A DNA stretch of 63,843 bases, the filler included, from Asterionella formosa (lineage: Eukaryota): NCBI GenBank assembly GCA_002256025.1. It is 5 parts of 5 records of this genome, joined end to end, with 100 filler letters (N's around TTAATTAATTAA, not from the genome) between each part and the next. Parts side by side here need not be neighbours in the genome. Positions count along the whole stretch, not along the records: positions 25,601 to 38,282 come from NKIB01007279.1; 4 more parts are not named here. The stretch is one strand, 5' to 3'. Below, in pieces: positions 12,702 to 45,431 of the stretch. Under the pieces are notes generated by a model. That model ran no database searches and was not told the origin of the DNA. It saw only the letters and a program-made list of their open reading frames with translations. Made by a program: the position numbers and the translations under genes. Positions within the stretch are counted from its first letter, which is position 1, and each line of letters opens with the position of its first letter.

Positions 12702-12801
12702 NNNNNNNNNNNNNNNNNNNNNNNNNNNNNNNNNNNNNNNNNNNNTTAATTAATTAANNNNNNNNNNNNNNNNNNNNNNNNNNNNNNNNNNNNNNNNNNN
12801 N
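12702..12801. other. Artificial scaffold-joining spacer N44-TTAATTAATTAA-N44
   Basis: 100 nt, with stop codons in all six frames; identical to the three other spacers. Confidence 0.97.
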
Positions 12802-13590
12802 TGTTGATGAGGTTTTAATCCTATTGGATAATCCTACTACCTTGGATAACCATGGACGAGGTCCTTATTCTATTTATTCAAGTATATGCCAATGGTACAG
12901 TTACTTTTCAACAAACTATGCATACTACGGAACGAATTAATATCCATTACATCAAACCTTTTCAAAGGTAAAAGGTTTTCCCTTGGTGTGGGAGAGTGAG
13001 CGATCTTGCGCATCAATACAGATGTATATAGGGTTAGTGTTATATCATATATGAATAAGAACTCAATAATGAGAGAACTCGACTAACCCTCATTGTATAC
13101 TTTGGTGTCGACTTGGAGAACGAGTTACACACAAGGATTAACAAATAAGCTTATATATTCAACAAATACTACTACTTCTAGTTAGATACTTCACAAGGTA
13201 CCTGGTACTGGTACCTGGTGAGCGATCTTGTGCATCAATACAGATGTATATAGGGTTAGTGTTATGTCAGATACATCAGAACTCAATAATGAGAGAACTC
13301 GACTTACCCTTATTGTATACTTTGGTGTCGACTTAGAGAACGAGTTACACACAAGGATTAACAAAAAAGCTCATATATTCAACAAATACAACTACCGGTA
13401 CTTCTAGTTCGATAATTCACCTGGTACCTGGAACCACATAAAAACTGATCGAGAGTCAAACGTTTGGATACCTGGTGAGCGATATAGGGTTTGGGTTAAC
13501 TCGACTAACAACTACATTGAATACTTTAAGTGTCAACCAGGAGAACGAGTTGCAAATTAGAATTAACAATATTGATGCACTCTCAAGTCC
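12802..13590 (+). repeat. Dispersed repeat (possibly LTR-derived): one ~390-bp TG...CA unit plus two partial tandem copies
   Basis: Block GTGAGCGATCTTG...GAGAACTCGAC...GAGAACGAGTTACACACAAGGATTAAC...GATACTTCACA occurs at ~12996-13195 and ~13218-13420, with a degenerate copy at ~13475-13590. 12802-13195 starts TGTTGA and ends TTCACA. Another copy lies at ~32956-33125. Confidence 0.65.
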
Positions 13591-25600: not shown

Positions 25601-26985
25601 TCTTCTTGCTCGTAAAGCTGTGTAGTCTGCTGCTCTAGTCCTCTGTTTCATGGTAGGCTCTAGTACTATCTCTATCCCTCCAGCTGGAGCGATCCAATCC
25701 TAGTAGGTAGTGTGTTGACCAAATGGTCAGTTTTGAAGATATGACCAAAACGAGGCAGTGTTGAGTCTGCTGCGATTATCTTGGTAACTTTGACTAGATA
25801 AGGTTTTCTATGTTTTGTAGAAAAAGATAAGAAAACTTGAGCAACAGTATTCTTGGAGAGGGTATAACATTTCAAGATGCAAGAAATTCCTCTATGTCAA
25901 TTTTCTAGTGAGTTTCATGTACACACTAAATGTCGTACTTCATATTTCTATGCAATCTTGAGTAGGGGGTTAAATATGGTCATAAATGCAACATTTATGT
26001 TTACATGGAACGTAATGCAATAGTTTATCATGTACACAATTACTACTATATACCGGTAGTAGAGTAAATGATAATCATGAGTGCCTCCCAAACCCCCAAG
26101 CTGTCGTTGTCTGATCTGAACGAAGATGGAGACATTTCTCTGGAGACAAGTGATCTAGTTTCCGTATTGCCTGTAGGGTAGTTATGCTGGCGAAATTGGC
26201 CAGTTTATATGCTACACGAAGGCCAAAGCATTGGTCAATGTGTACAACAGGGTCTCCAATAAATCAGTTCTCGACCATGCCTGGAAGCCTTCCGAAATCA
26301 AGAAAATCGTTCCTTGGGACAATACTTCTCCTTACCTGAATACTTCGAATCCGTTTTGGAGGCTGGGGTCTGTATCAAGGTCAAGATTGATCAGATTGCC
26401 GCACAGTTTGTTGCTCATGGTCCAAATCACGAATCGCTTCTCGATTATTTTCGTGATTGTCTGTATGCCACACAACTTGAGTGTACAGAAGTAAGCGATT
26501 GCGCATTAGCCGCAACGCTTGCTTCAGACGAGCAGAATAGTAGTAACAATTATTAGTAACACTACTGTGGAATTGAATACCTCTTTTTTGTAGTCATTTT
26601 ATAATATTATCGAAACATTATATTATATTGGTAGGTAATGTATTTTTCAATACATTCTACTCACCCCAATAAAGAATATCTAACTCTAGCCGCACTCAGA
26701 TAATTTAATACCTATTGTCCTGTTACTGATGTTATCATATACATATAATATTACTGGTACCAGGGTATACCGGTATGTGTGTTCCTTGTAACAACTGTTT
26801 ATGGCCACATTAAACATTTTACTATTGTTTAATGTCGCAATTGCTTAGAATGCAATTGCTTATTGATTTGTGTATACCAGTGTGGCCAGCGGTGCAGAAC
26901 CGCTGGTTATAGTGATTTTGAATTCCATGTTCCTGCTCACCCACATACAACATATTCATACAACATTTTTTACCAAAAACCGACA

Positions 26986-28031
26986 ATGGTTGTCTCAAAA
27001 AGCTTTACTGCCACCCGACTTTGGAAAGACATCTCCATTGTTGCAGTCCCACTTCGTGAAAACGCCAATTGTTTTGTTATGAAGTGGAAACTTCGATTGT
27101 TGCTAGATAAAAATAAGGAGAACTCGGACCGTAAGTTACTTCGCTTTTCCTACAAGGTCACCTCGGAACCAACGAGAATGTAGCTTTGGATGTGGATAAA
27201 CTACTTCCCATCATGTTGGAAAGAGTGAAGACAATCAGGTCGTTATCAGTGATCAAAAAAATGTTCGGAAAGGAGCAAGGTGGGATGGCATGTACTAGTC
27301 ATTACACCTCGCAAACGTGAAGCGGCTATGAAGTTCTTCAAAGATGATTCCTGGCCCTCATTCAAATGTTGCCGCATCGATGATCTCCGCTTCATTCTTG
27401 AAAAGATTGCTGAAGCCATGAAAGCTGTGTCTTCTATCATGGAAGATGAAAATGTTGTCAATGGTCATTCCCGGTTCTGTCATGCTGCCCCCATTTGCAG
27501 CAGGTAATGCAACCAATGTCAGCAAAGATATGCCACATACCTGTACATTATTGCACACTAATGACAATTTGTCAACGGTTCATCAAGAGCCACATTTTGA
27601 CTACCAGCATACAGAACTGGTAATCAATGATGTTGACATGTGCCTTCCTTGGGGATTGGATATGTCCCTTGGTTCTGGTGGGTTCTCCATAAATGTATGG
27701 GATGGAGAGTCATTCGGATGTAACTTTGACTTAGATCGAAAAGGTAAAGCAGCGCGCAGAGAATCAACATGCGATGTTACTTCGCATTCCTTTCAAATAC
27801 ATATTTTTAACGAGGGGTGATACAGTTCATGCAGGTGCTATGGACAATCACCTCAACAATGGAGCTTTGAGACTTCATATGTACTTGTTGCCTGGTTCCA
27901 CTCCTGAGAAAAAGTCAGTTGCGATCAGGAAACAAGCCGGAAATGCCATCAAGACAAAGGCATATGGAAAGAATTGTATCCCTCCATCTCTAGTTTCATT
28001 TTTGCTTGTTTCTTATGGAAAAGGATGGTAA
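26986..28031 (+). pseudogene. 2OG-Fe(II) dioxygenase-like gene (PhyH-like DSBH fold), frameshifted; copy A
   Basis: ORF pieces 27446-27820 and 27774-28031 give HQEPHFDY (HxD), LPWG, RGDTVHAG (distal His) and LRLHMYL (2OG-binding Arg). Homologous to 38590-39402. The 5' boundary is uncertain. Confidence 0.65.
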
Positions 28032-28140: not shown

Positions 28141-28700
28141 CCTTCTTGAGAGCATCTCCAATTCAATTGGCGTCATCAACAGCAATTGAATTGGCATTGA
28201 CGTGAATTCAATTGCCTCAAAAATAAATTCAAGTCAGTCAATCCAGTATTGATCATGAGGGGGTAATGACCTTCGCATCATCATCACCAATTGAATTGGC
28301 ATTGAGATCAAGTGTAGTGATGACAGTATCGACTTTGAAGGCCTGTGTTGATATTGACCTGGATGGGGTGGTAATGGCCTTTGCATCAGCATCACCAATT
28401 GAATTGGCATTGAGATCAAGTGTAGTCACGACAGTATCGACCTTGAAGACCTTTGTCGACGGCCTCGGCGCCAACAAGACGAATAGAATTAAAATCGAAA
28501 GCAACTGTAGTCAATTCAGCATTGACCTTGACAGCCTATACAATAGCCTGGCGCCGACAACATCAATTGATTTCTTTGGTACATCAAGTTTCGTCGCAAC
28601 GCATGCCGTTTTTACGCAGTACCGGTATTTCGATTTGAATAACAACACCGGTCTATCACGCTCTTTTTCGCACAGAGCGAATCCATCAGCCGACATGGCT
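28141..28700 (-). pseudogene. Ribonuclease-inhibitor/NLRC3-like leucine-rich repeat gene fragment
   Basis: Repeats FKVDTVVTTLDLNANSIGDADAKAI and FKVDTVITTLDLNANSIGDDDAKVI (LxLxxNxIGDxGAxAL-like), plus degenerate flanking repeats with frameshifts. Confidence 0.7.
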
Positions 28701-28986
28701 GTACTTATGTTTGAATAGCAAAAAGGATGTCCCGTTATGGGTTTCGATACCGGTATCCGCATTGAGATTTGTCGTCGTGGGTAAATTGCGTGGAAATACT
28801 ACAGAGCATTTTCTACACATGCAGCGACATAAAACAATAGCAAAACAATAGCAAGGCGTGTTACCGTTATCAATTTATTTACTAGCGATATACCGGTACC
28901 CACATTAATACGCCGCCAAGCAAGGAATGTTGGTGTTGATATAGAGGAAAAAACAATATATTAACTTAAATAAACAACGCTCCTCC

Positions 28987-30203
28987 ATGTTGAGACGAAA
29001 CTTGTTTACATCCCGACCCGGTGGTTGGAAAACCACTGGGATGGAAGATATCTCAGAAGAAAGAGAAGAAGTGGCTGACAGTCACAGTCATAGTCATAGT
29101 GGCAGTGATAGTCTGACAGTTCTGGTATCGAAAAACAGCCTCAATTTGAAGAGAGTAACGAGGATGACTTCAACAACTGTGATATCGAAGAAATCGAAGG
29201 TTTAATGGGAACTGTCACACCAGAAGAGCCTGGTATCTTGGAAAGCGAGGTTATTTTAGCACTTGATGACGGTGTTCTCGTCAATCCACCAAATGAAAAA
29301 AAAGTCGAGGTATGGGTGAATAATTATTTTTCTATGGATGTCAAGACCAGGGAGGTTGAAGGTATCCTTTGTGATTTGGGACAACCGAATTTTGGAGGTG
29401 GCGGAAGTCTCATGTGGTTAGCAAAAGATCGTCCATACTTTTTAGAGCTGATGGCATTAGAGTTACAAAGAAAAGATGCACAATTTTTTCATTCTTGTAA
29501 GTGTCCCTTTGTAATTTGGGAGTTATTCAATACCAAAACAAATTTGACCACAATTGAGATTGGTGACTTAAAACACACACACACCATAATGTTGTCAAGG
29601 ATGGCATAAGAAAACTTATTCACAAATACTATCAGTCTGTTAATTACTTCCCCGAATACAGTGAACATGAGACCACCACGTTACATTGCTGAGGCTAGGG
29701 CAAAAGGAATTCCTGTTGATGAAAAATCGAAAAAGTGCATTAAACGACAACTCACTTACTACGCAATAAACCGGTTGGGCTAACAAGGTCAAGGCAATAA
29801 CTGGGGAGGAATCATCGCTGCTGTCCTTGAATCGTACAAGAAGGAAAATCTCTTTAATTTCACGCAACATTCGATGTACCTACTTGGCATAGGCTGTTGA
29901 CGAGAAGACAACTCTTTGGTAGCTGTACTAACAACCAAGAATTTGTTGCTGAATGCGTACAGACAGCAATTCTGGGACAATCCAATTTTCGTTTCTGCTG
30001 ATTCATATTACAGACTGACACAAGAAGGAAACAGCGTTTTTCTAGTGATTACAACCAACTGGGCTCAACAAAAGAAAACTATTGCGTATAGAGTGATAAG
30101 CCATGAACACCACAAAGCGCAAAGATTCATATTTGCGTCGATTAAATCTGCCTTGGAAGAGCTCATTAGATATAGGAAAACGAATGATATTCCTATTTAT
30201 TAA
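28987..30203 (+). pseudogene. MULE-like transposase N-terminal half (WRKY/GCM1-type Zn DNA-binding domain + first catalytic Asp), copy A
   Basis: SCKCP...KHTH zinc motif, then VSADSYYRLTQEGNSVFLVITTN...IAYRVISHEHHKAQRFIF. This matches MULE strands 1-3 (DxTYxL..GxP..V...IAYA...E). Ends RKTNDIPIY* at 30203. Several frameshifts. Confidence 0.7.
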
Positions 30204-30245
30204 TGACAACTATCATAGTCACAAATAGTTCTTTTCTAAATATAG

Positions 30246-31516
30246 TCATCCTTTAATATCTAAGTTACCTCCACGTTTCGCATGTTTGATTTGTCCAGAA
30301 CCTTTATTTTTAATACAAGGCTTCCACGGTCAAATGCAAAAGCACATGCATGTTTACACCATGTGTTTGCTAAATGTGTGTGACTATGGCAAGATATGAG
30401 GCCTTCATTGCCCATGGCTTTCAAGCTATTAGCTAATCATAATGGGTCCCAATCCACATGCTCCCAAAATTCCTAAAAAGTTAGTTAGAGCAACATCATC
30501 ATTTTCAATCTTGGACACAATAGGTTCAATAAGGTGAAACCTGCGGGTGAGGGAAAGGACATCATCAAATGTGTGGTTAGCAGAATACTGTTCAGGATTT
30601 TGGAGAAGGCGCTTGCACTCATCATGCATTTTGTTCTTCTTTATCAATTGCATAACAGTTAGTGCAGTAACTGATTCTGTGTTCCCGATATAAAGATATC
30701 TCTTTCGAGATTGGGATAGTTGGCTTTGCTGTGACAATGCAGTTGCAGTATTCTGGGACTGCATTGTTTTCATAGAGGGCATAATATATAGGTCCACAAA
30801 TGACGATGTCACAATCAACAATGAACCCTCTCCGATTCTAATTGCATACACTTGAAATCAAATGTCACTGTGAGAAATGTAGCTTCTCCATTTTGGCTTT
30901 TCTCAAGAAGCTTATGAATAGACTTGTAGAAATTTATCGAGTGTACCGATGAGTGTAAAGTGGAGCAAAATGATAGATCCCCTTTGCAACAATCCTCTAA
31001 CATGTAAGACATGTTATGAATGAAGTTACCCGTTAAAGGCTTCCTGTGGTCGAAGAATGATTTATCACCACTGTTGATGCCCTCTGAATTGTTGTTGTGT
31101 GCAGGCAAACCACCACGAAGCAGATTGGAACTATTCAATTCAATTCGGGTGTGAATGGTGGGACCCCATTGTTTCAACCATGCAGTTGCAACTTCCTTTT
31201 CCTTGCATGTGTTGATCCACTCGAAAATCATCAGATCGCAAAGGATTAGAACCAGCTGTATCCCGGGACTTCTTTTATACGCCTCAAAGTCTTCACCCAT
31301 TCTCTTCTTGTTTTTGTCGTATTTCTTGAACTTTCCTCTATGCTTCTTTACCAGTGCATTCCAGGCATGATAAGAGCACATACCAAATGTAAATTCGGCA
31401 TTATAATCAGTCATTGTCTGTATGATGAATGAAGGTGAGTCCGGTTCCCAGCACCAAGGAGTGTCGCCAAGGGGAAGAGGAAAATTGTCAGTGACCAACA
31501 GATACCAATGCCACAT
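30246..31516 (-). pseudogene. MULE-like transposase C-terminal half (second Asp, CxxH, Glu, SWIM-like finger), copy A
   Basis: QTMTDY, FGMCSYHAW (CxxH), WLKQWG, HNNNSEGIN (NNxxE) and C-terminal SCHSHTHLANTWCKHACAF (SWIM-like). Ends GGNLDIKG* at 30246, tail-to-tail with the N-half. Confidence 0.72.
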
Positions 31517-31607
31517 TGTTGTACGACTATGTGATATTGCGTACCCTCAATCACCTTTAGATACCGCTACTATATCAAAGTCACTCCCTAACCCTATTCC
31601 TATCATG

Positions 31608-32090
31608 GGCATGATTCAAATTCAAATCAATCATACACGTAGTACATTTAAATACAAATATCTGTGCAACATACCGGTGTATAGGTGTCACTATGCTGGA
31701 CATGATTTGAATTCAAATTAATCGTATGCATACTGGAATGTACGTTTACATGCAAAATATGTGTGCTACATATATACCGGTAGGTATCCCGATGATGGCA
31801 TGATTAAAATTCAAATCAATCGTGTACATACGTTTTTATACAAAAATATCTGTGTAACATATTGGTACTACCAGGTACCAGGGTACCAGGTAGTACAATA
31901 GATGATACAATAGACAGTAGTATCTGGTACCTGGTACCAGTACTCACACACAAATAGAATCGAACATGCATATGCATATATGCATATCTATCATGTCTTC
32001 TAAACTATAGATTGCTACAGCAGATATGTACATATACCCATGTACGACTGTCCTACTCATGCAACACAAATGATTCAAATTCAGATTGAG
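31608..32090. repeat. Scattered ~25-bp repeats (GGCATGATTCAAATTCAAATCAATC) upstream of the MULE C-half
   Basis: Copies near 31608, 31798 and 32070, with a related variant near 31700. Confidence 0.55.
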
Positions 32091-32427: not shown

Positions 32428-32955
32428 AAGCTAACAATGTAAATGTTTATATAAAGCAATACATACTAGCTAAATACTAGCGGCAATAGCAAGCGCACAA
32501 GCAAGAAGAATGGCTAAAATTGTTTCTATATTACATGTTATTGAATGGAGCCAATGCAACTGTTACAATTCGCGTTCACCAAACAGGTTGCTGCAGTTTA
32601 AATAGGCCTCAACTTTGTTCATGCTCCAAAATTTGAGCAAACGAGAGCAATTATTAATTCTAGTGCTATCATTGGAAACTGTGTTTGTTTGCTTCTGTCT
32701 GCTTCCCAAACCCACCATGCTTTAATTTTGCAAATTACAAATATATATCTATACTTCTTATGATCTGTATATTCAATATTATTTGATGTACAAAGAAGGC
32801 CCTGTAGAGCATGCCAGTATATGCTCCTACACATTGAAATTTCATACATATATATAGCAGGCACATATATGTAGCTATATGGATCTTTTTGCCAGCTGAC
32901 TAAGCAATCATGCTCAACACATCAATCCCACTCAACTACCATACACATAGTACCT

Positions 32956-33180
32956 ATAGGGTTAGGGTTAAATAGATTATATCAGAACTCTATCAGGAGA
33001 GAACTTGACAAACACCTATTGAATACTTTTGTGTCAACCTAGGAGAACAAGTTACACACAAGGAGGATTAACTAATAAGCTCATATATTCAACAAATGCT
33101 ACTACTTCTAGTTAGATACTTCACATTGAATTCAAAAAGAGTCAAATCAGAATTAACAGTTTCAATGTATTTTCAAGTTT
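32956..33180 (+). repeat. Second-locus copy of the 12802-13590 dispersed repeat
   Basis: TATAGGGTTAG...GAGAACAAGTTACACACAAGG...CATATATTCAACAAAT.CTACTACTTCTAGTTAGATACTTCACA matches ~13027-13195. Confidence 0.8.
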
Positions 33181-39825: not shown

Positions 39826-41790
39826 ATGTTATCAGGTGCTACACGAAGGATCTATAACTGGTGTCCACTATGTGGCTACAAAGTGAGGAAAAATCGGAAA
39901 CCATCTAGATCGCATCATAATATTTGCTCGAATCGTTCTTTCGTATCATTTGGTTGGTGTCGTGTTTGTTATCAAGAACACCAGCTAGATCCCTCGATCG
40001 TTGCATCGTCGGAATTCTGTTTCAAAACTCCCTCTGAACACCTTATCACGAGCAGACAAACATTGGAAGGCATTCAGCAACCAGCCTGTGATGTTTCTTT
40101 CCCCGAAGGAAATAATAGTTTCCAAGATGATGATGATATTATCTCGACAGAGGACCAAGAAGAGACTATACAGTTTGAATCGATTTCCGGAACAACATAC
40201 AGTATTTTGAAAACAATGAACAAAGAAAGACTTTTATTAGACCAATCAAAGCATATTCCTCTGCCATACAACTTGTCCATTCCCAGTCGAGAAACAGTAG
40301 CAATTGACCCAATCAAGTTAGAGTTAATGTTATTTATTAACAAAAGAATTCTTGCCACCATAATACTTTGATCATATAATGAATTGGGCTTTCAAGGCTC
40401 GTGATGATGGCTATTTCCAGAAAAAGCAACGTGCACCATCCCATTAGACATTTTAAAAATTTTGAATATATCGTTTCCTCCATTTGTTGGTAAAACCATG
40501 GCAAAGTGAACTTAATTTAGGATTTCAACTACCCTGTACTCCGCATTATTTCGATCCTGTTGGGTTACTGGGCTCCATGCTACGAGATCCTGACGTGATG
40601 CAACATTTTGTGCACTACCCACAAGAGAAATTCACCTTTTGCGGAAAACGCATCTACGATAAAACTACTTCTGCAGAATAGTTTCACTCAGCTTTTAATG
40701 AATCCCACGCTTCAGAGGATGGGAAACTAAAAGCCGGCCACCTGTTTGTAGGAATTGGATTTTCAGTGATGGATCCGCAATTGACAAAATGCAGAAACAT
40801 TATGAACATCCATTGTTAATAGCAATGTTCAATTTGTCTATCGAGTGTAGGAAAAAGGTGGAAGCATGGCAATTGGTGTCGTGTTACCTGACGTAGAAGT
40901 TAGTGACTTAGAAAAAATTCAAATATATCAGATTTGAGTAAGGAACGGTTAGCTCAATATCATCGGTCTACGGGATTTTTATTGGAACCATTTCGTGATC
41001 CAAACAAGTGTTGTGAATTGTTTGTTCATGGATTGGTTAAAACGAAAGGTTTCTTTCAAATTGGCATGATCATTGGTGATACAGATGAACACAACAAAAT
41101 ATGCGGTTTTCGCGGAGGGAATGGAAAATACAGACTACATACCTGTAGAGACTGTACACTTACTACTCCGAACCCTGATAATCCATACGCAAAATGCGAA
41201 CCACGCCTTGTGAGCTACACTAAACCATATCTGGAATGGGTTTTGAAAAACATTCATCATTCAGATGGAAAGTTACCAAGTTTACCTGATTCCTTTGATA
41301 TAAAGCAAAGTCGCAGATATGCAACCAAAGATGAATGGTGTCGACAAATATCACAAAACACGATTATTCCAGCCCTTTTCTACCCCTATTTCGGTGGTGA
41401 TAAGCAGGGAGTCCATGCTGCTACCCCTTTCGAAACTCTACACCAATTTCTCATAGGAATGTTGCCATACATTCTAGAATCTCTGTACAATTACAGAGCA
41501 GTCACTGAAGTTTGGAAACAATTTTTGAACAAACGAACATATTCCAGATGTACCTGAACCAAAAAAAATAGAAAAGGAGTTATCCAAGAAGAAAAAACAT
41601 GAAGAGAGTGGTGGGGAGGAACTACCAATTACTGATGATGGTAGACGTTCTGAACAACAACGGTATCTACTAAATTGGCAACAATCTAGACCGAAGTTGG
41701 AAAATCAAAATCGTAATTTATTTTCAAAAATATCTTTTGAAATGATTGCGAGATTCATCAATGCGCATCTAGAAAGACAAAGTGATCGTT
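39826..41790 (+). pseudogene. Plavaka-like transposase with N-terminal Cys/His zinc-finger region, truncated and frameshifted
   Basis: Ordered motifs HYFDPVGLLGSMLRDP, RIY, SDGSAIDK..HPL..MFNLSIECRK..AW..LP, QYHRSTGFLLEP, MIIGDTDEHNKICG, CRDC, PFETLHQFLIG and RQSDR follow the Plavaka-family layout. N-terminal CPLC...HHNIC and CRVC. Confidence 0.65.
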
Positions 41791-42579
41791 AGAGGTGGCG
41801 GGTCTCTTTCCTGGTTATCAAAGAATCGCCCATATGTCAGAGGTGATGGCATCCGAGTAACGAAAAAGATATGTACTTTTTATCATTCCTGTAAATGCCC
41901 AATTCTAATTCGGGAATTGTTCAATACAAAAACCAATTTGACAACTATTGAAATTGGGTATTTAAAACATAATACTCACAACCATGTCAAAGATGGGCTT
42001 TCGCGACATAACAACAAATACTACCAGTCAGTGTTGATAACTTTGCCAAGTAAATTGAACATGAAACCTGCCCGTTTTGTTGCTGATCCCAGAGCGAAAG
42101 GAGTTCCTGTTAACAAAGCCTTGAAGAAGTCCCTCAAACTTCATCCTACTCGTCTTTGGAATAAGTTGAATGGATTAGTCAATGGCGAAGCGAATAACTT
42201 GGGTGGAATCTCTTCTCTACTTGAATCTTAAAAGAGGGAATGTATTGTCAACTTTACTGAACATTCGAGGTTCCTACTTGGCATAGATTGTCAGCCAGAG
42301 GATGACTCTTTGGTGGCTGTGTTATCGACAGAGAATTTGTTGCTGAATGCGTACAGACAGAGATTCTGGGGAAATCTAATCTTCCTTGCTGCTGATGCAT
42401 CATATAGACTTATGCAAGAGGGAAATGGTGCATTTCCGGTGATCAAAACAAAGGAAAGCAATCGCCTATGGAGTGATTAGTCATGAACACCACAAGGCAC
42501 AAAACTAATATTTTCGTCTATTGAGCCATCATTGGAAGAACTGGTTAGGTGTAGGAAAACTGATAATATTCCAATCTAA
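41790..42579 (+). pseudogene. MULE-like transposase N-terminal half, copy B (5'-truncated)
   Basis: GGGSLSWLSKNRPY, CTFYHSCKCP...HNH, NLLLNAYRQ, AADASYRLMQEGNG and IAYGVISHEHHKAQ. Ends RKTDNIPI* at 42579, the same endpoint as copy A. Confidence 0.7.
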
Positions 42580-42671
42580 AAACACAGCAGATTAGATATA
42601 GGTAAACTAAAATATTCGCAAAGAATTACAACTATAATAAAATGGAACTTTCCGTAGTATGATTCAAAAAA

Positions 42672-44203
42672 TTATTCATGAATATCCAAGTTTCCTCCAC
42701 GTTTTGAATGTTTGTTCCGTCCGGAACTTCTATTCTTAATACTTGGCTTTGGATGAATTGTCTTATGAAATGTGGTAATTATCTCCCTATCAAATGCAAA
42801 TGCACATGCTTGTTTACACCACGCATTTGCTAAATACGTGTTCCAATGGCGACATACAAGGCCTTCATGGCCCATCTTTTTCAAGTTTTTTAAATGTAAA
42901 TTGGACCCAATCCACACTTTCCCAAAACTCCTAAAATGCACGTTTGTGAGGGCAATATCATCAGTGGCGTTTTTCGATACCATATGTTCAATAATATGAA
43001 ACCTGCATGTGGGAGATAGTACATCATCAAATGTGTGGTTAGCACAACAGTGTTTGGGATTCCAGAGAAGTTGCTTGTATTCATCATGCATGTTGTTTCG
43101 CTTCATCATATGCATGACAGTAGCAGCGCTAATAGATTCCGTCATACCCATGTAATGAAGCCTTTGTCGAGATTGTGAGAGCTGTGATGCTTGACTGTAC
43201 TGGGACAATGCAACAGCATTTTCGGACTGTATGGTTGCATTGCATACATTATGTTTAGGTCAACAAATGATGATGTGGCTGGCGATCAACAACGAACCCT
43301 CTGCTAATCCTAATTGCCTCACACTTGAAATCAAACATAACAGCGAGAAATGTAGCATCTCCTTTTCGGCTATTCTCAAGGACCTTATAAATGGACTTGT
43401 AGATATTGATGGAGGGTACTGATGAGTGCAAAGTGGAGCAAAACTCTAAGTCACCCTTGGATCTGTCCTTCAACATGTAGGACATGATGTGGAGAAAATT
43501 TGCTGTTAAAGGTTTCCTGTGATCGAAGAAAGATTTGTCTCCGCTATTTGTTCCTTCTGAATTATTGTTGTATGCAGGTAATCCACCTCGAAGTAAATTA
43601 GAATCGGTCAGTATAACTCTCGTATTAATGGTTGGACCCCAATCTTTCAGCCATGCAGTTGCGACTTTCTTTTCTTTGTAAGTGTTGATCCATTTAAAAA
43701 TCATTAACTCCCAACGGAAAGGAGGAAATAAATGAATCCAGGGACTTCTCTTATAAGCTTCGAAGTCCTCATCCATTCTCTCCTTGTACTTGTCATATTT
43801 CTTGAACTGCCCTCTATTCTTCTTTACCCAGGCGTTCCAGGCATGATATGAACACATTCCAAACTTAAATTCAGCAGTTGGCCAAACCTTTTTGACAGCT
43901 GTGCGACAGGCTAAAGTATAATCTGCCATTGTTTGTATAACATTCAAAGGTGGTTCCGGTTCCTAGCTCCATGGACTGTCACCAATGGGAATGAGGAAAA
44001 AGTCAGCTTGTGCTAGTGTTTGTGCCTGCAGGTGACAAGGTTGTGAGTTCTATGTTTCTATCCTCAACCATTTCCTTGTCCGAACTGGAATCACTCTCAT
44101 CGGAAGAAATTTCTACAGAGTTATTTTCAGATGACTCCTCCTCCAAGGAGCCTTGATCTGAGGAGCTCGAAGAACTAGATATTAACAAAAGAATTCTTCC
44201 CAT
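42672..44203 (-). pseudogene. MULE-like transposase C-terminal half, copy B, with acidic Ser-rich leader
   Basis: QTMADYTLACRTAVKKVWP..FGMCSYHAW, WLKDWG, YNNNSEGTN and VCRHWNTYLANAWCKQACAF. Ends GGNLDIHE* at 42672. Upstream Ser/Glu-rich ORF 44203-44003 may be its N-terminus. Confidence 0.72.
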
Positions 44204-45048
44204 GCAACAGAAAGTTATCGAAACATGATGTATTCCTGGCTTATGTGCATGAATAATCTAAATACAAAATGATTAGACAAGATAAAAAAGAGCCGCACCA
44301 CCAGCCAGAGTTAGCACGACAACTTGAGTACATCACCTAAGAGTTACCATCTACCTTTAGAACTAATAAGGGAAAATCTCTATTGTTAGTACTATCAGGT
44401 CGTATAAAAATATATAAACTAGCCTGCTATATCACACGTATGGCTGGTCTGCTATGTATGGTTGGCATTTGGGATACATACTTCTAGGTACTACCAGTAG
44501 TTGCATGTGTGAATGTACTGCTGCCTATGGTATGGGGATGATGAGACAGAAAATCCTTCTTGACCATGACGAAATTATTGGACTCAATATCTCCACTAAT
44601 ATTGAAAAAGAACAATTCCTATCTCGCATGTAGATGTAGAATAGCATAGACAAAAAAATCGCTTAAGAGTAGATTTTTTGCAGTATTATTGACAACAAAG
44701 ATTTGAAATCGCCGCTAGAAGTTATTTCTGGTCGTCATTTGCTCAGTAAACAAGGCATTGTTGAGTCCGCGGTGATTAGCTTGATAACTTCTATTAGATA
44801 ATAATTTTATTTACTGTACAAATGTATGAGAAAACTTGAGCAATAGAAATCTTGGAGGGAGCACAACATCTCGAAATCCAAGAAAATTGCATAAGGTTGA
44901 ATTATGTACTGACTATCATGTACATACTAATTATCGTGGTTCATTTTTCTATGGAATCTTGCTTGATAAGGTCATTTTCCAGTTTAATATAGACAAGCAT
45001 ATAGACATTCAACAATACCTGCTTGTTCTTTTGGAAACTAGATATTTC

Positions 45049-45431
45049 NNNNNNNNNNNNNNNNNNNNNNNNNNNNNNNNNNNNNNNNNNNNNNNNNNNN
45101 NNNNNNNNNNNNNNNNNNNNNNNNNNNNNNNNNNNNNNNNNNNNNNNNNNNNNNNNNNNNNNNNNNNNNNNNNNNNNNNNNNNNNNNNNNNNNNNNNNNN
45201 NNNNNNNNNNNNNNNNNNNNNNNNNNNNNNNNNNNNNNNNNNNNNNNNNNNNNNNNNNNNNNNNNNNNNNNNNNNNNNNNNNNNNNNNNNNNNNNNNNNN
45301 NNNNNNNNNNNNNNNNNNNNNNNNNNNNNNNNNNNNNNNNNNNNNNNNNNNNNNNNNNNNNNNNNNNNNNNNNNNNNNNNNNNNNNNNNNNNNNNNNNNN
45401 NNNNNNNNNNNNNNNNNNNNNNNNNNNNNNN
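45049..45431. other. Within-scaffold assembly gap (383 N)
   Basis: Plain N run without the spacer motif. Confidence 0.95.

Follow-up and report, generated by a model that had tools for sequence, protein, structure and literature searches.

A Mutator-like transposase that is probably divided over two convergent genes in Asterionella formosa

We analysed a stretch of Asterionella formosa DNA of 63,843 nucleotides (NCBI GenBank assembly GCA_002256025.1; referred to as the window), which is made up of five pieces of ~12.7 kb with N44-TTAATTAATTAA-N44 spacers at 12702, 25501, 38283 and 51064, and found in it two diverged copies of a transposase that is split inside its DDE domain into two tail-to-tail genes (copy A in piece 3 and copy B in piece 4). 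Judged by its sequence the split family is a high-copy Mutator-like element (MULE; MULE/IS256-type), and we consider it likely that its transposase consists of two separate polypeptides, encoded by the two convergent genes, that together make up one enzyme. The features of the two copies are the following.

28987..30203, + strand: N-half gene of copy A, a pseudogene, delimited from open reading frames (ORFs) and a read-through translation, with a start and end that agree with the intact protein P0204 (404 aa)
30204..30245, no strand: tail-to-tail spacer of 42 nt between the two stop codons of copy A
30246..31493, - strand: C-half remnant of copy A, a 5'-truncated pseudogene in three ORF pieces (30815-31546, 30429-30857 and 30260-30436) in three frames
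31494..31900, no strand: unrelated, commoner repeat that replaces the 5' end of the copy A C half; an ATG occurs in it by chance at 31516, and ATTCAAATTCAAATCA is found as short repeats in direct and inverted orientation
41789..42579, + strand: N-half remnant of copy B, a pseudogene with the same zinc finger and first-Asp region
42580-42671, no strand: spacer of 92 nt between the stop codons of copy B, equivalent to the 42 nt of copy A
42672..44257, - strand: C-half gene of copy B, a pseudogene, delimited by comparison with P0002 and P0230

Layout of the two copies and their junction

Along the N half of copy A, an acidic N-terminus is followed by a WRKY-like zinc finger and this by the opening strands and helix of the DDE/RNase H fold. 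An earlier note on this DNA had placed the zinc motif and the motifs around the first catalytic Asp on the + strand, with a stop at 30203, and this was borne out by a single frame (29112-30203) that reads ...FFHSCKCPFVIWELFNTKTNLTTIEIGDLKHTH...LVAVLTTKNLLLNAYRQQFWDNPIFVSADSYYRL...KTIAYRVISHEHHKAQRFIFASIKSALEELIRYRKTNDIPIY and then stops (30201-30203); the frame holds the C-x-C-P...H-x-H motif (C-x5-C...H-x-H, a WRKY-like zinc finger, at about 29496-29585) and ADSYYRL...IAY..ISHE, with the first Asp codon at 30000-30002. The remainder of the transposase is encoded on the opposite strand, again as had been proposed (TMxD, CxYH, NNNSEG and a SWIM-like CKH). The - strand ORF pieces, which are 88% identical to the intact protein P0230, read in order ...FPLPLGDTPWCWEPDSPSFIIQTMTDYNAEFTFGMCSYHAWNA...LRGGLPAHNNNSEGINSGDK..., a helical region and ...GLISCHSHTHLANTWCKHACAFAFDR..., and comprise an FPLP..WxWEP lead-in, the second Asp with C-x2-H (TMTD, with the second Asp codon at 31408-31406, and CSYH), NNNSEG (catalytic Glu codon at 31084-31082) and a SWIM-like CxC..CxH finger of the CKH type (at about 30340-30395). 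The ancestral stop codon of this half (TGA, 30246-30248) is in the frame of the conserved tail RGGNLDIKG. The two genes end tail-to-tail at 30203 and 30246, 42 nt apart where about 40 nt had been claimed, and the 3' ends of their transcripts must overlap or abut within 30204..30245.

The claimed second copy with the same breakpoint was also found. Copy B (41789-43876) aligns to copy A with 70.6% identity over 2119 nt (blastn), on the same strands and without any rearrangement across the junction. Unlike copy A, its C half retains a Ser/Asp/Glu-rich N-terminal region (ORF 44003-44257). The TLACRTAVKKVWPT segment is complete in this half, and both the SWIM-like motif and the conserved tail (...KRGGNLDIHE) are present.

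Contigs of four public read runs were aligned to 28700-31900 at a likeness of at least 85%: X1 (a DNA run), X24 (polyA RNA of the same sample as X1), X2 (a DNA run of an independent study) and X23 (a metatranscriptome library). The family is highly abundant, with 5,427 X1 contig pieces on these 3.2 kb (1409 at a likeness of at least 99%, 1841 at 95-99%, 1787 at 90-95% and 390 below 90%). A family repeated to this extent invites misjoins, and the inverted orientation might be taken for an assembly artefact, a reading to which we attach a negligible probability. The junction is spanned by an X2 DNA contig (record 14, 30103-30316) as well as by a contig of the X23 RNA library (record 21, 30075-30323), which argues against a misassembly of the window, in line with the position of the earlier note; the same junction is present in two diverged copies on different pieces; and independent protein predictions start and end at the same places.

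The assumption that the window genes are intact did not hold, as frameshifts, in-frame stops and deletions were found in both copies. The lesions of copy A were called against copy B, the intact proteins P0204 and P0230 and the majority of the family contigs. Its + strand gene has a frameshift near 29113 (relative to P0204), a shift of +2 at 29573 and of -2 at 29637 (relative to most family contigs) with a TAA at 29607 in between, and a TAA (29781) and a TGA (29898) where copy B and P0204 have sense codons. Compared with copy B and most family contigs, its - strand gene has lost 34 nt at 30322/3, which destroys the conserved tail, and 39 nt at 31402, which takes out TLACRKAVKKIWP; it is also frameshifted near 30431 and lacks a C at 30847. 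The N half of copy B has an in-frame stop (42229-42231) and a 14-nt deletion after 'QEGNGAFPVIK', with the ancestral-frame stop at 42577-42579, and its C half has a TAG (43963-43965), a frameshift near 43255 and its stop at 42672-42674.

The right end of copy A had been put at 31516, and this had to be revised. Family homology of the C half is lost at 31493/31494, where the contigs of all four runs part from the window in both directions and where the alignment with copy B fails too. Since the other repeat lies to the right of this point, the ATG at 31516 is not the true start of the - strand gene. The summed X1 depth over 31494..31900 is roughly 2-4x that of most bins of the two genes.

Intact halves, selection and transcription

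Public data contain both halves as intact stand-alone proteins. When 1936 candidates were searched with the read-through N half of copy A (P0151), 11 proteins were obtained, and together with the members of their clusters these include P0204, P0198, P0155, P0156, P0153 and P0154, intact N halves of 340-404 aa (47-97% identity to P0204). The start (MLRQNLFTSRPGG) and end (...TNDIPI) of P0204 are identical to those of copy A. In the N-half alignment, the seven rows that reach the C-terminus, the window read-through included, all end within one column and all keep the first Asp, and C-x5-C...H-x-H is conserved across the alignment. A profile made from the two window C halves and searched against 1.84 billion representatives matched 166 proteins at E<=0.001 (87 at 1e-10 and 26 at 1e-30). 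The intact C halves are about 430-660 aa long and have their own Met; P0230, for instance, has its own Met and a Ser/Asp-rich tail, and runs in a single frame across the frameshift sites of copy A. D89, C112, H115, N206, N207 and E210 do not vary among the 23 C halves that were aligned (23-52% identity to P0230), most of which start with Met-Ser/Asp and an acidic tail, followed by a conserved (A)PRxDxFPLP..WxWEP lead-in, and a SCxCxxYLxxxWCxH SWIM-like motif is found in their alignment and in both window copies. The option that missed exons would turn each gene into a full transposase can thus be set aside, as the intact relatives have the same ends.

An N half is absent from nearly all long C-half proteins. 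Among the C-half representatives of at least 380 aa (n=48), 45 have at most 165 residues ahead of the C-half match, which leaves too little room for the zinc finger plus the initial part of the fold, a combination of ~280 residues. The exceptions are P0065, P0114 and P0131 (with 425, 286 and 232 residues upstream of the C half, respectively), and an N half is found only in P0065 and P0131, which leaves 46 of the 48 without an N half and two that are collinear single proteins. The same two were the ones matched by an N-half hidden Markov model among 150 listed C-half representatives (P0131, E 6e-33; P0065, E 1e-30). A search for longer relatives gave no fused form of P0204, which is weak evidence. 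A metagenome scan with the N-half alignment gave 4 loci from 279 pattern matches, on contigs of 1.1-1.8 kb that are too short for the partner gene.

P0054, P0049, P0114 and P0065 carry an extra Cys-rich N-terminal segment (e.g. CxxC...CxxC) that precedes the C half or, in the collinear form, everything else in the protein, a pattern that hints at a further zinc-binding domain in some lineages.

The two halves might be joined after transcription or translation, by mRNA trans-splicing or by a split intein, to yield a one-chain enzyme, and it is true that they abut exactly on the collinear protein P0065. With a split intein, the first product would close with an intein-N block of ~100 aa and the second would open with an intein-C block, the final HN of which is followed by C/S/T. 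The N halves, however, end ~20 residues past the helix, at a conserved stop and without a block of intein-N size, the C halves begin with a Met and a variable low-complexity tail without an intein-C motif, and contigs about as long as one gene plus flanks (e.g. L003) bear a single half. No intein family was found in Pfam scans of the relatives and of 28 family members. Fractured genes with split inteins are a subject of PMC2677866. No strand-changing joint is listed in the contigs of the RNA runs, but contigs cannot show absence and are therefore silent on trans-splicing. Altogether we regard a joining of the halves as very improbable. The earlier note had offered a two-subunit or a trans-spliced enzyme: at the level of the family the two polypeptides stand, whereas the conserved stop of the N half and the own Met and acidic tail of the C half speak against the trans-splicing. 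A DNA-inversion switch that would restore a collinear gene was considered as well and was discarded in view of the conserved stop of the N half, the Met and tail of the C half and the lack of inverted repeats on either side of the C-half segment.

Selection on both halves was estimated by comparing copy A with copy B (Nei-Gojobori on tblastn-guided codon alignments). The approximate ratio of nonsynonymous to synonymous substitution rates (dN/dS) was 0.19 for the N half (bootstrap 95% 0.11-0.31; 186 codons) and 0.165 for the C half (bootstrap 95% 0.11-0.22; 379 codons), at a dS of about 1.3-1.4. Because both copies have the same arrangement, most of their divergence arose under purifying selection on both halves after the split, and to judge from these comparisons the split is old and selected. 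The ratios bear directly on the scenario in which a one-off inversion killed the transposase and the damaged element multiplied passively thereafter, through an intact relative acting in trans or through segmental duplication. It would fit that both window copies are pseudogenes and that collinear relatives exist, the latter having been named beforehand as a finding that would count for such copying. Nevertheless, the collinear proteins are only two out of 48, the low ratios hold across ~30% DNA divergence after the split, intact halves are found at 37-97% identity and persist with conserved ends and catalytic residues to 23-47% identity, and the 46 other long C-half representatives have no N half. 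We rate passive copying as slightly less probable even than a joining of the halves.

The polyA RNA contigs of X24 span bins 29128-31588 and leave the flanks 28700-29127 and 31589-31900 uncovered, whereas the X1 DNA of the same sample covers both flanks, the right one being the deepest X1 part. That the RNA contigs stop at flanks that X1 covers speaks for transcription of family members over both genes and against a carry-over of DNA; these contigs carry no information on strand or transcript ends.

Family membership, collinear relatives and element ends

The MULE signature consists of a D, of D-x(~20)-CxxH and of an E in N-x(2-3)-E after a helical insertion. In the split family the first D is present in all seven N halves, and the second D, the CxxH ~20 residues later and the NNxxE after the helical insertion in all 23 C halves. 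The catalytic domain is spread over two polypeptides instead of one, as seen from the conserved N-half stop, the C-half Met, the opposite strands and the 46 of 48 representatives without an N half. The matches to the MULE profile PF10551 are weak and complementary, with N halves on profile positions 2-61 and the C half P0009 on 56-96 (E 0.06 for the window N half on 2-61, 0.012 for P0131 and 0.061 for P0153, both on the first half of the profile, and 0.028 for P0009). Among 28 family members, 7 match MULE (E<=0.1, best 0.0019) and 6 match SWIM, and these are the two most frequent families; the best match to SWIM (PF04434) has an E of 0.00069, and P0004 reaches 15.4 bits where 19.6 is the cut-off. 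The ORF pieces of the window itself yielded no more than a weak match to MULE, and no Pfam match to FAR1, WRKY or FLYWCH was found in the window ORFs, the relatives or the 28 family members. As the Pfam scores remain below the gathering score, the split family appears to be a distant lineage.

Features from a protein language model placed P0065 with MULE/SWIM clusters (best 0.95, 196 shared features), and nine of the ten best matches that bear a Pfam family share the family or clan of the best one. The AlphaFold2 model of P0065 is confident for residues 440-840 only (the local confidence, pLDDT, of residues 284-429 is under 50). Model residues 435-623 had as rank 1 among 48,161 solved chains ISCth4 (PDB 6xg8), a weak match (Z 6.1, so under 8; rmsd, the root-mean-square deviation, 5.7 A; 158 residues) that covers part of the domain only. 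ISCth4 is a single-chain bacterial enzyme, which we take to be a member of the IS256 family, the bacterial kin of Mutator. For the N-terminal sheet the best Foldseek row was the DNA-binding domain of AtWRKY18, again weak (E 0.19, prob 0.94, TM 0.52 on the target), with further weak structural matches to AFT2 and WRKY33 (Z 4.5). Foldseek against PDB gave no match at E<=0.001, and a profile search of PDB sequences no relative at E<=1. The MULE derivation put forward in the earlier note agrees with the complementary if sub-threshold Pfam matches, with the language-model clusters and with the weak first rank of ISCth4.

Read in series, the split halves have by their motifs the same domain order as MURA of MuDR, Jittery and Muta1 (PF10551 and SWIM PF04434), i.e. 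a zinc finger resembling the WRKY/FAR1 type, D, D-x(~20)-CxxH, a helical insertion, NNxxE and a SWIM-like CxC..CxH. In canonical MULEs the DDE domain is on one polypeptide, whereas in the split family the RNase H fold is interrupted after helix 1 and before strand 4. The genes mudrA and mudrB are convergent in MuDR, but maize MURB is not part of the catalytic fold. Systems that need more than one gene product include Tn7 (TnsA and TnsB), RAG1 with RAG2, and ProtoRAG, and RAG1/RAG2-like genes are convergent; to our knowledge the Tn7 and RAG subunits each form a whole fold by themselves, and in none of these systems does one RNase H fold extend over two chains. We know of no description of a DDE transposase or integrase in which the RNase H-like core is not on one chain. 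Full-text literature searches gave no split MULE transposase, although the supplementary trees and element lists of PMC6446971 could hold some.

As described in the literature, MuDR bears two ORFs, mudrA and mudrB, and the 'MULE-Diatoms' (group 37 of Dupeyron et al. 2019) have one ORF with SWIM (both PMC6446971); a Phaeodactylum tricornutum MULE has one transposase ORF (MULE and SWIM), a second, E3-ligase-like ORF, terminal inverted repeats (TIRs) of ~200 bp and target site duplications (TSDs) of 9 bp (bioRxiv 10.1101/2023.01.02.522487); and WRKY-GCM1 fingers occur in MULE transposases (PMC1702500). The diatom MULEs of these descriptions share with the split family a stramenopile/algal origin and a SWIM or SWIM-like finger, and the Phaeodactylum element also has a second ORF. 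They differ in that the extra ORF of Phaeodactylum is E3-ligase-like while in the split family the transposase itself occupies two genes, and in that the described elements are bounded by TIRs of about 120-200 bp with a TSD of 9 bp, whereas no TIR or TSD was found around the window copies.

Collinear relatives were found in public assemblies, namely P0065 (859 aa) and P0131/P0189 (782/794 aa). P0204 (69-395) aligns to P0065 75-414 (E 4e-23) and P0230 (62-319) to P0065 430-700 (E 3e-20), and because these matches adjoin without overlap or real gap the halves are parts of one domain. The collinear proteins have in common with the split family the N half, the C half (E 3e-20) and the lead-in (...REDNDLF..W.YEP...), but they are single polypeptides, have no acidic tail where the halves meet and share no more than 25-26% identity with the split halves. 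In an unrooted tree of 43 C halves (quick IQ-TREE, with support from the Shimodaira-Hasegawa-like approximate likelihood ratio test, SH-aLRT), P0065 and P0131 form one clade (support 99), which under a midpoint root is nested in a well-supported group of C-half-only proteins (P0141, P0066 and P0075, then P0029 and P0031). One change of state suffices on the unrooted tree. A midpoint root would imply a re-fusion and a root on the collinear branch a single split, so that the direction of change may be either.

No convincing TIRs or TSDs were found flanking either copy (repeat search, and minus-strand blastn of left against right flanks, with chance-sized matches only). The true element ends may lie outside the window, since copy A is cut at 31493, the left side of copy B differs and an N gap follows at 45049. 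The metagenome contig L001 (1-1368) matches the copy B N half (90%) up to 42423 and continues with 44641-44936 (86%); from its sequence it is an internal-deletion derivative without the junction and without the whole C half, and it suggests that the element extends to at least 44936. A 75%-alike stretch is also present at 25748-25960 in piece 3.

Several further features were observed around the copies. A coding-like segment without a Pfam family at 27491-27748 (+ strand), ~1.2-1.5 kb upstream of the start of the copy A N half, encodes the peptide MPHTCTLLHT...QEPH[F/Y]DYQH.EL..NDV..C.PWGLDM...GGF..N.WDGES and has a counterpart in L004 (109-364) at a similar distance upstream of an N-half gene (three tblastx pieces, in frame, at 50-63% protein identity); this segment is a candidate for a third gene of the element. 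Immediately left of copy B is a 216-aa ORF (40907-41557, + strand; ...KICGFRGGNGKYRLHTCRDCTLTTPNPDNP...) that has no Pfam family, is absent from the left flank of copy A and could be part of a different mobile element that copy B has entered or lies next to. To the left of copy A there is a 97-nt tandem pair (28255-28351 and 28363-28459, 89%), and to its right direct and inverted copies of ATTCAAATTCAAATCA (31614-31629, 31703-31718 and 31803-31818) and 79-nt direct repeats (31595-31673 and 31785-31861), in the region that is the most abundant of the stretch in X1. A repeat of ~190-220 nt occurs as a tandem pair at 12996-13208 and 13218-13434 (89%) and is present once more, in a different piece, at 32941-33125 (80-82%); this is probably a short repeat family unrelated to the split element. 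Other window ORFs match ordinary eukaryotic and algal families (e.g. an XPG-type nuclease, a histone deacetylase, a chlorophyll a/b-binding protein, glycosyltransferases and an ADP-ribosylglycohydrolase), and the public runs that contain the stretch are mostly labelled as freshwater or algal metagenomes.

Proposed assembly of the halves and implications

A complex was predicted from P0204 (125-404) and P0230 (50-399). It scored 0.76 against 0.45 for the best of 3 controls, and the runs share at least 63% of contacts. Of 78 solved complexes, 51 came up to this mark, as did 2 of 108 mismatched pairs; the score should be read as complementarity and not as binding, because halves of a split fold tend to pass via their likeness to solved RNase H-fold structures. 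The confident interface consists of PIFFAAD 333-339 (with the first Asp), KTIAYGV 364-370 and the following helix in the N half, and of IQTMTD 84-89 (with the second Asp) and helix 212-245 after the catalytic Glu in the C half. As modelled, this is the interface expected of a rebuilt RNase H sheet.

We propose the following mechanism as a model. The product of gene 1 (about 340-404 aa) would supply an acidic tail, the WRKY-like zinc finger, strands 1-3 and the first helix with the first Asp. That of gene 2 (about 430-660 aa) would start with Met, an acidic/Ser-rich tail and the lead-in, and would continue with strand 4, which bears the second Asp and CxxH, and after it with the helical insertion, the Glu of NNxxE and the C-terminal SWIM-like finger. 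Strand 4 of the second product would pair with strand 1 of the first, and with one active site completed in trans both genes would be needed for transposition. The tail-to-tail layout could have arisen through a single inversion, one break of which would fall into the loop ahead of the FPLP..WxWEP lead-in and the other immediately beyond the stop codon; as a result the N half would have acquired a nearby stop and the C half a new start and a low-complexity tail.

A number of observations weigh against an enzyme of two chains. Both window copies are pseudogenes, so that a working pair at one locus is a presumption. Tail-to-tail linkage is documented only for the family of the window copies, as protein data cannot reveal gene orientation, and contig L003 (of the P0156 family) runs 164 nt past the N-half stop without a C-half tail. 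The Cys-rich N-termini of P0054, P0049 and P0114 make a function without an N half possible. All Pfam matches of the family are below the gathering score (27.6 bits for PF10551), and mobility as a MULE is presumed, as no TIRs or TSDs were found around either copy. The codon alignments, being made from tblastn high-scoring pairs, favour conserved stretches, and dS is near saturation. The complex was predicted without the use of alignments, the fold of the partner within it is uncertain (predicted local distance difference test, pLDDT, 44-49) and one control did reach 0.45. The RNase H part of the N half folds poorly, both alone (AlphaFold2 mean pLDDT 42) and inside the collinear model, and because of the low pLDDT in this region neither the model of the N half alone nor that of P0065 can show a rebuilt sheet.

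Several of these points would also suit the main rival reading, namely that the split is real and both genes are selected but do not form a joint transposase, with the N half, the C half or both in another role, for instance as a DNA-binding repressor of the element or as a host-domesticated regulator like FAR1/FHY3 or ZSWIM, with mobility provided by collinear elements elsewhere. The Cys-rich N-terminal domain that P0054, P0049 and P0114 have of their own, the existence of the collinear relatives P0065 and P0131, the failure to find TIRs and TSDs around the window copies and the L003 partner not being immediately adjacent are in line with this. Nevertheless, we consider it unlikely: the invariance of the catalytic D, CxxH and NNxxE (23/23) and of the first Asp (7/7) is unexpected of non-catalytic proteins, a family with so many copies and variants, and with a deletion derivative among them, has the character of a mobile element rather than of a host gene, and the collinear forms, at 25-26% identity, are unlikely to recognise the ends of the split family.

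The two-polypeptide transposase hence remains the reading that we think likely. In its stronger form this would be a natural DDE transposase that always needs two chains, of which one supplies the first Asp and the other the second Asp and the Glu of a single RNase H-like active site, encoded by convergent genes with 3' ends 42-92 nt apart; we lean slightly towards accepting this form. If true, mobility of the element would depend on transcription from both strands and on an encounter of the two products, and the overlapping convergent transcripts could supply a built-in double-stranded RNA trigger of silencing, for the use of the host or of the element. The split and fused states, with collinear forms nested among split ones under the midpoint root, would have been interconverted by inversion. 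Pipelines that look for transposons with one MULE ORF will miss or mislabel the split family, because its Pfam scores are sub-threshold and its halves resemble fragments. The family could provide a ready-made two-component system, usable as an inducible or intersectional transposition tool and as an alternative to engineered split enzymes, and a model for how inversions make new gene pairs and how the co-expression of convergent genes gates the activity of an element. If the lineage indeed keeps a divided core under purifying selection and yet reaches a very high copy number, the RNase H fold would tolerate a natural break between helix 1 and strand 4.

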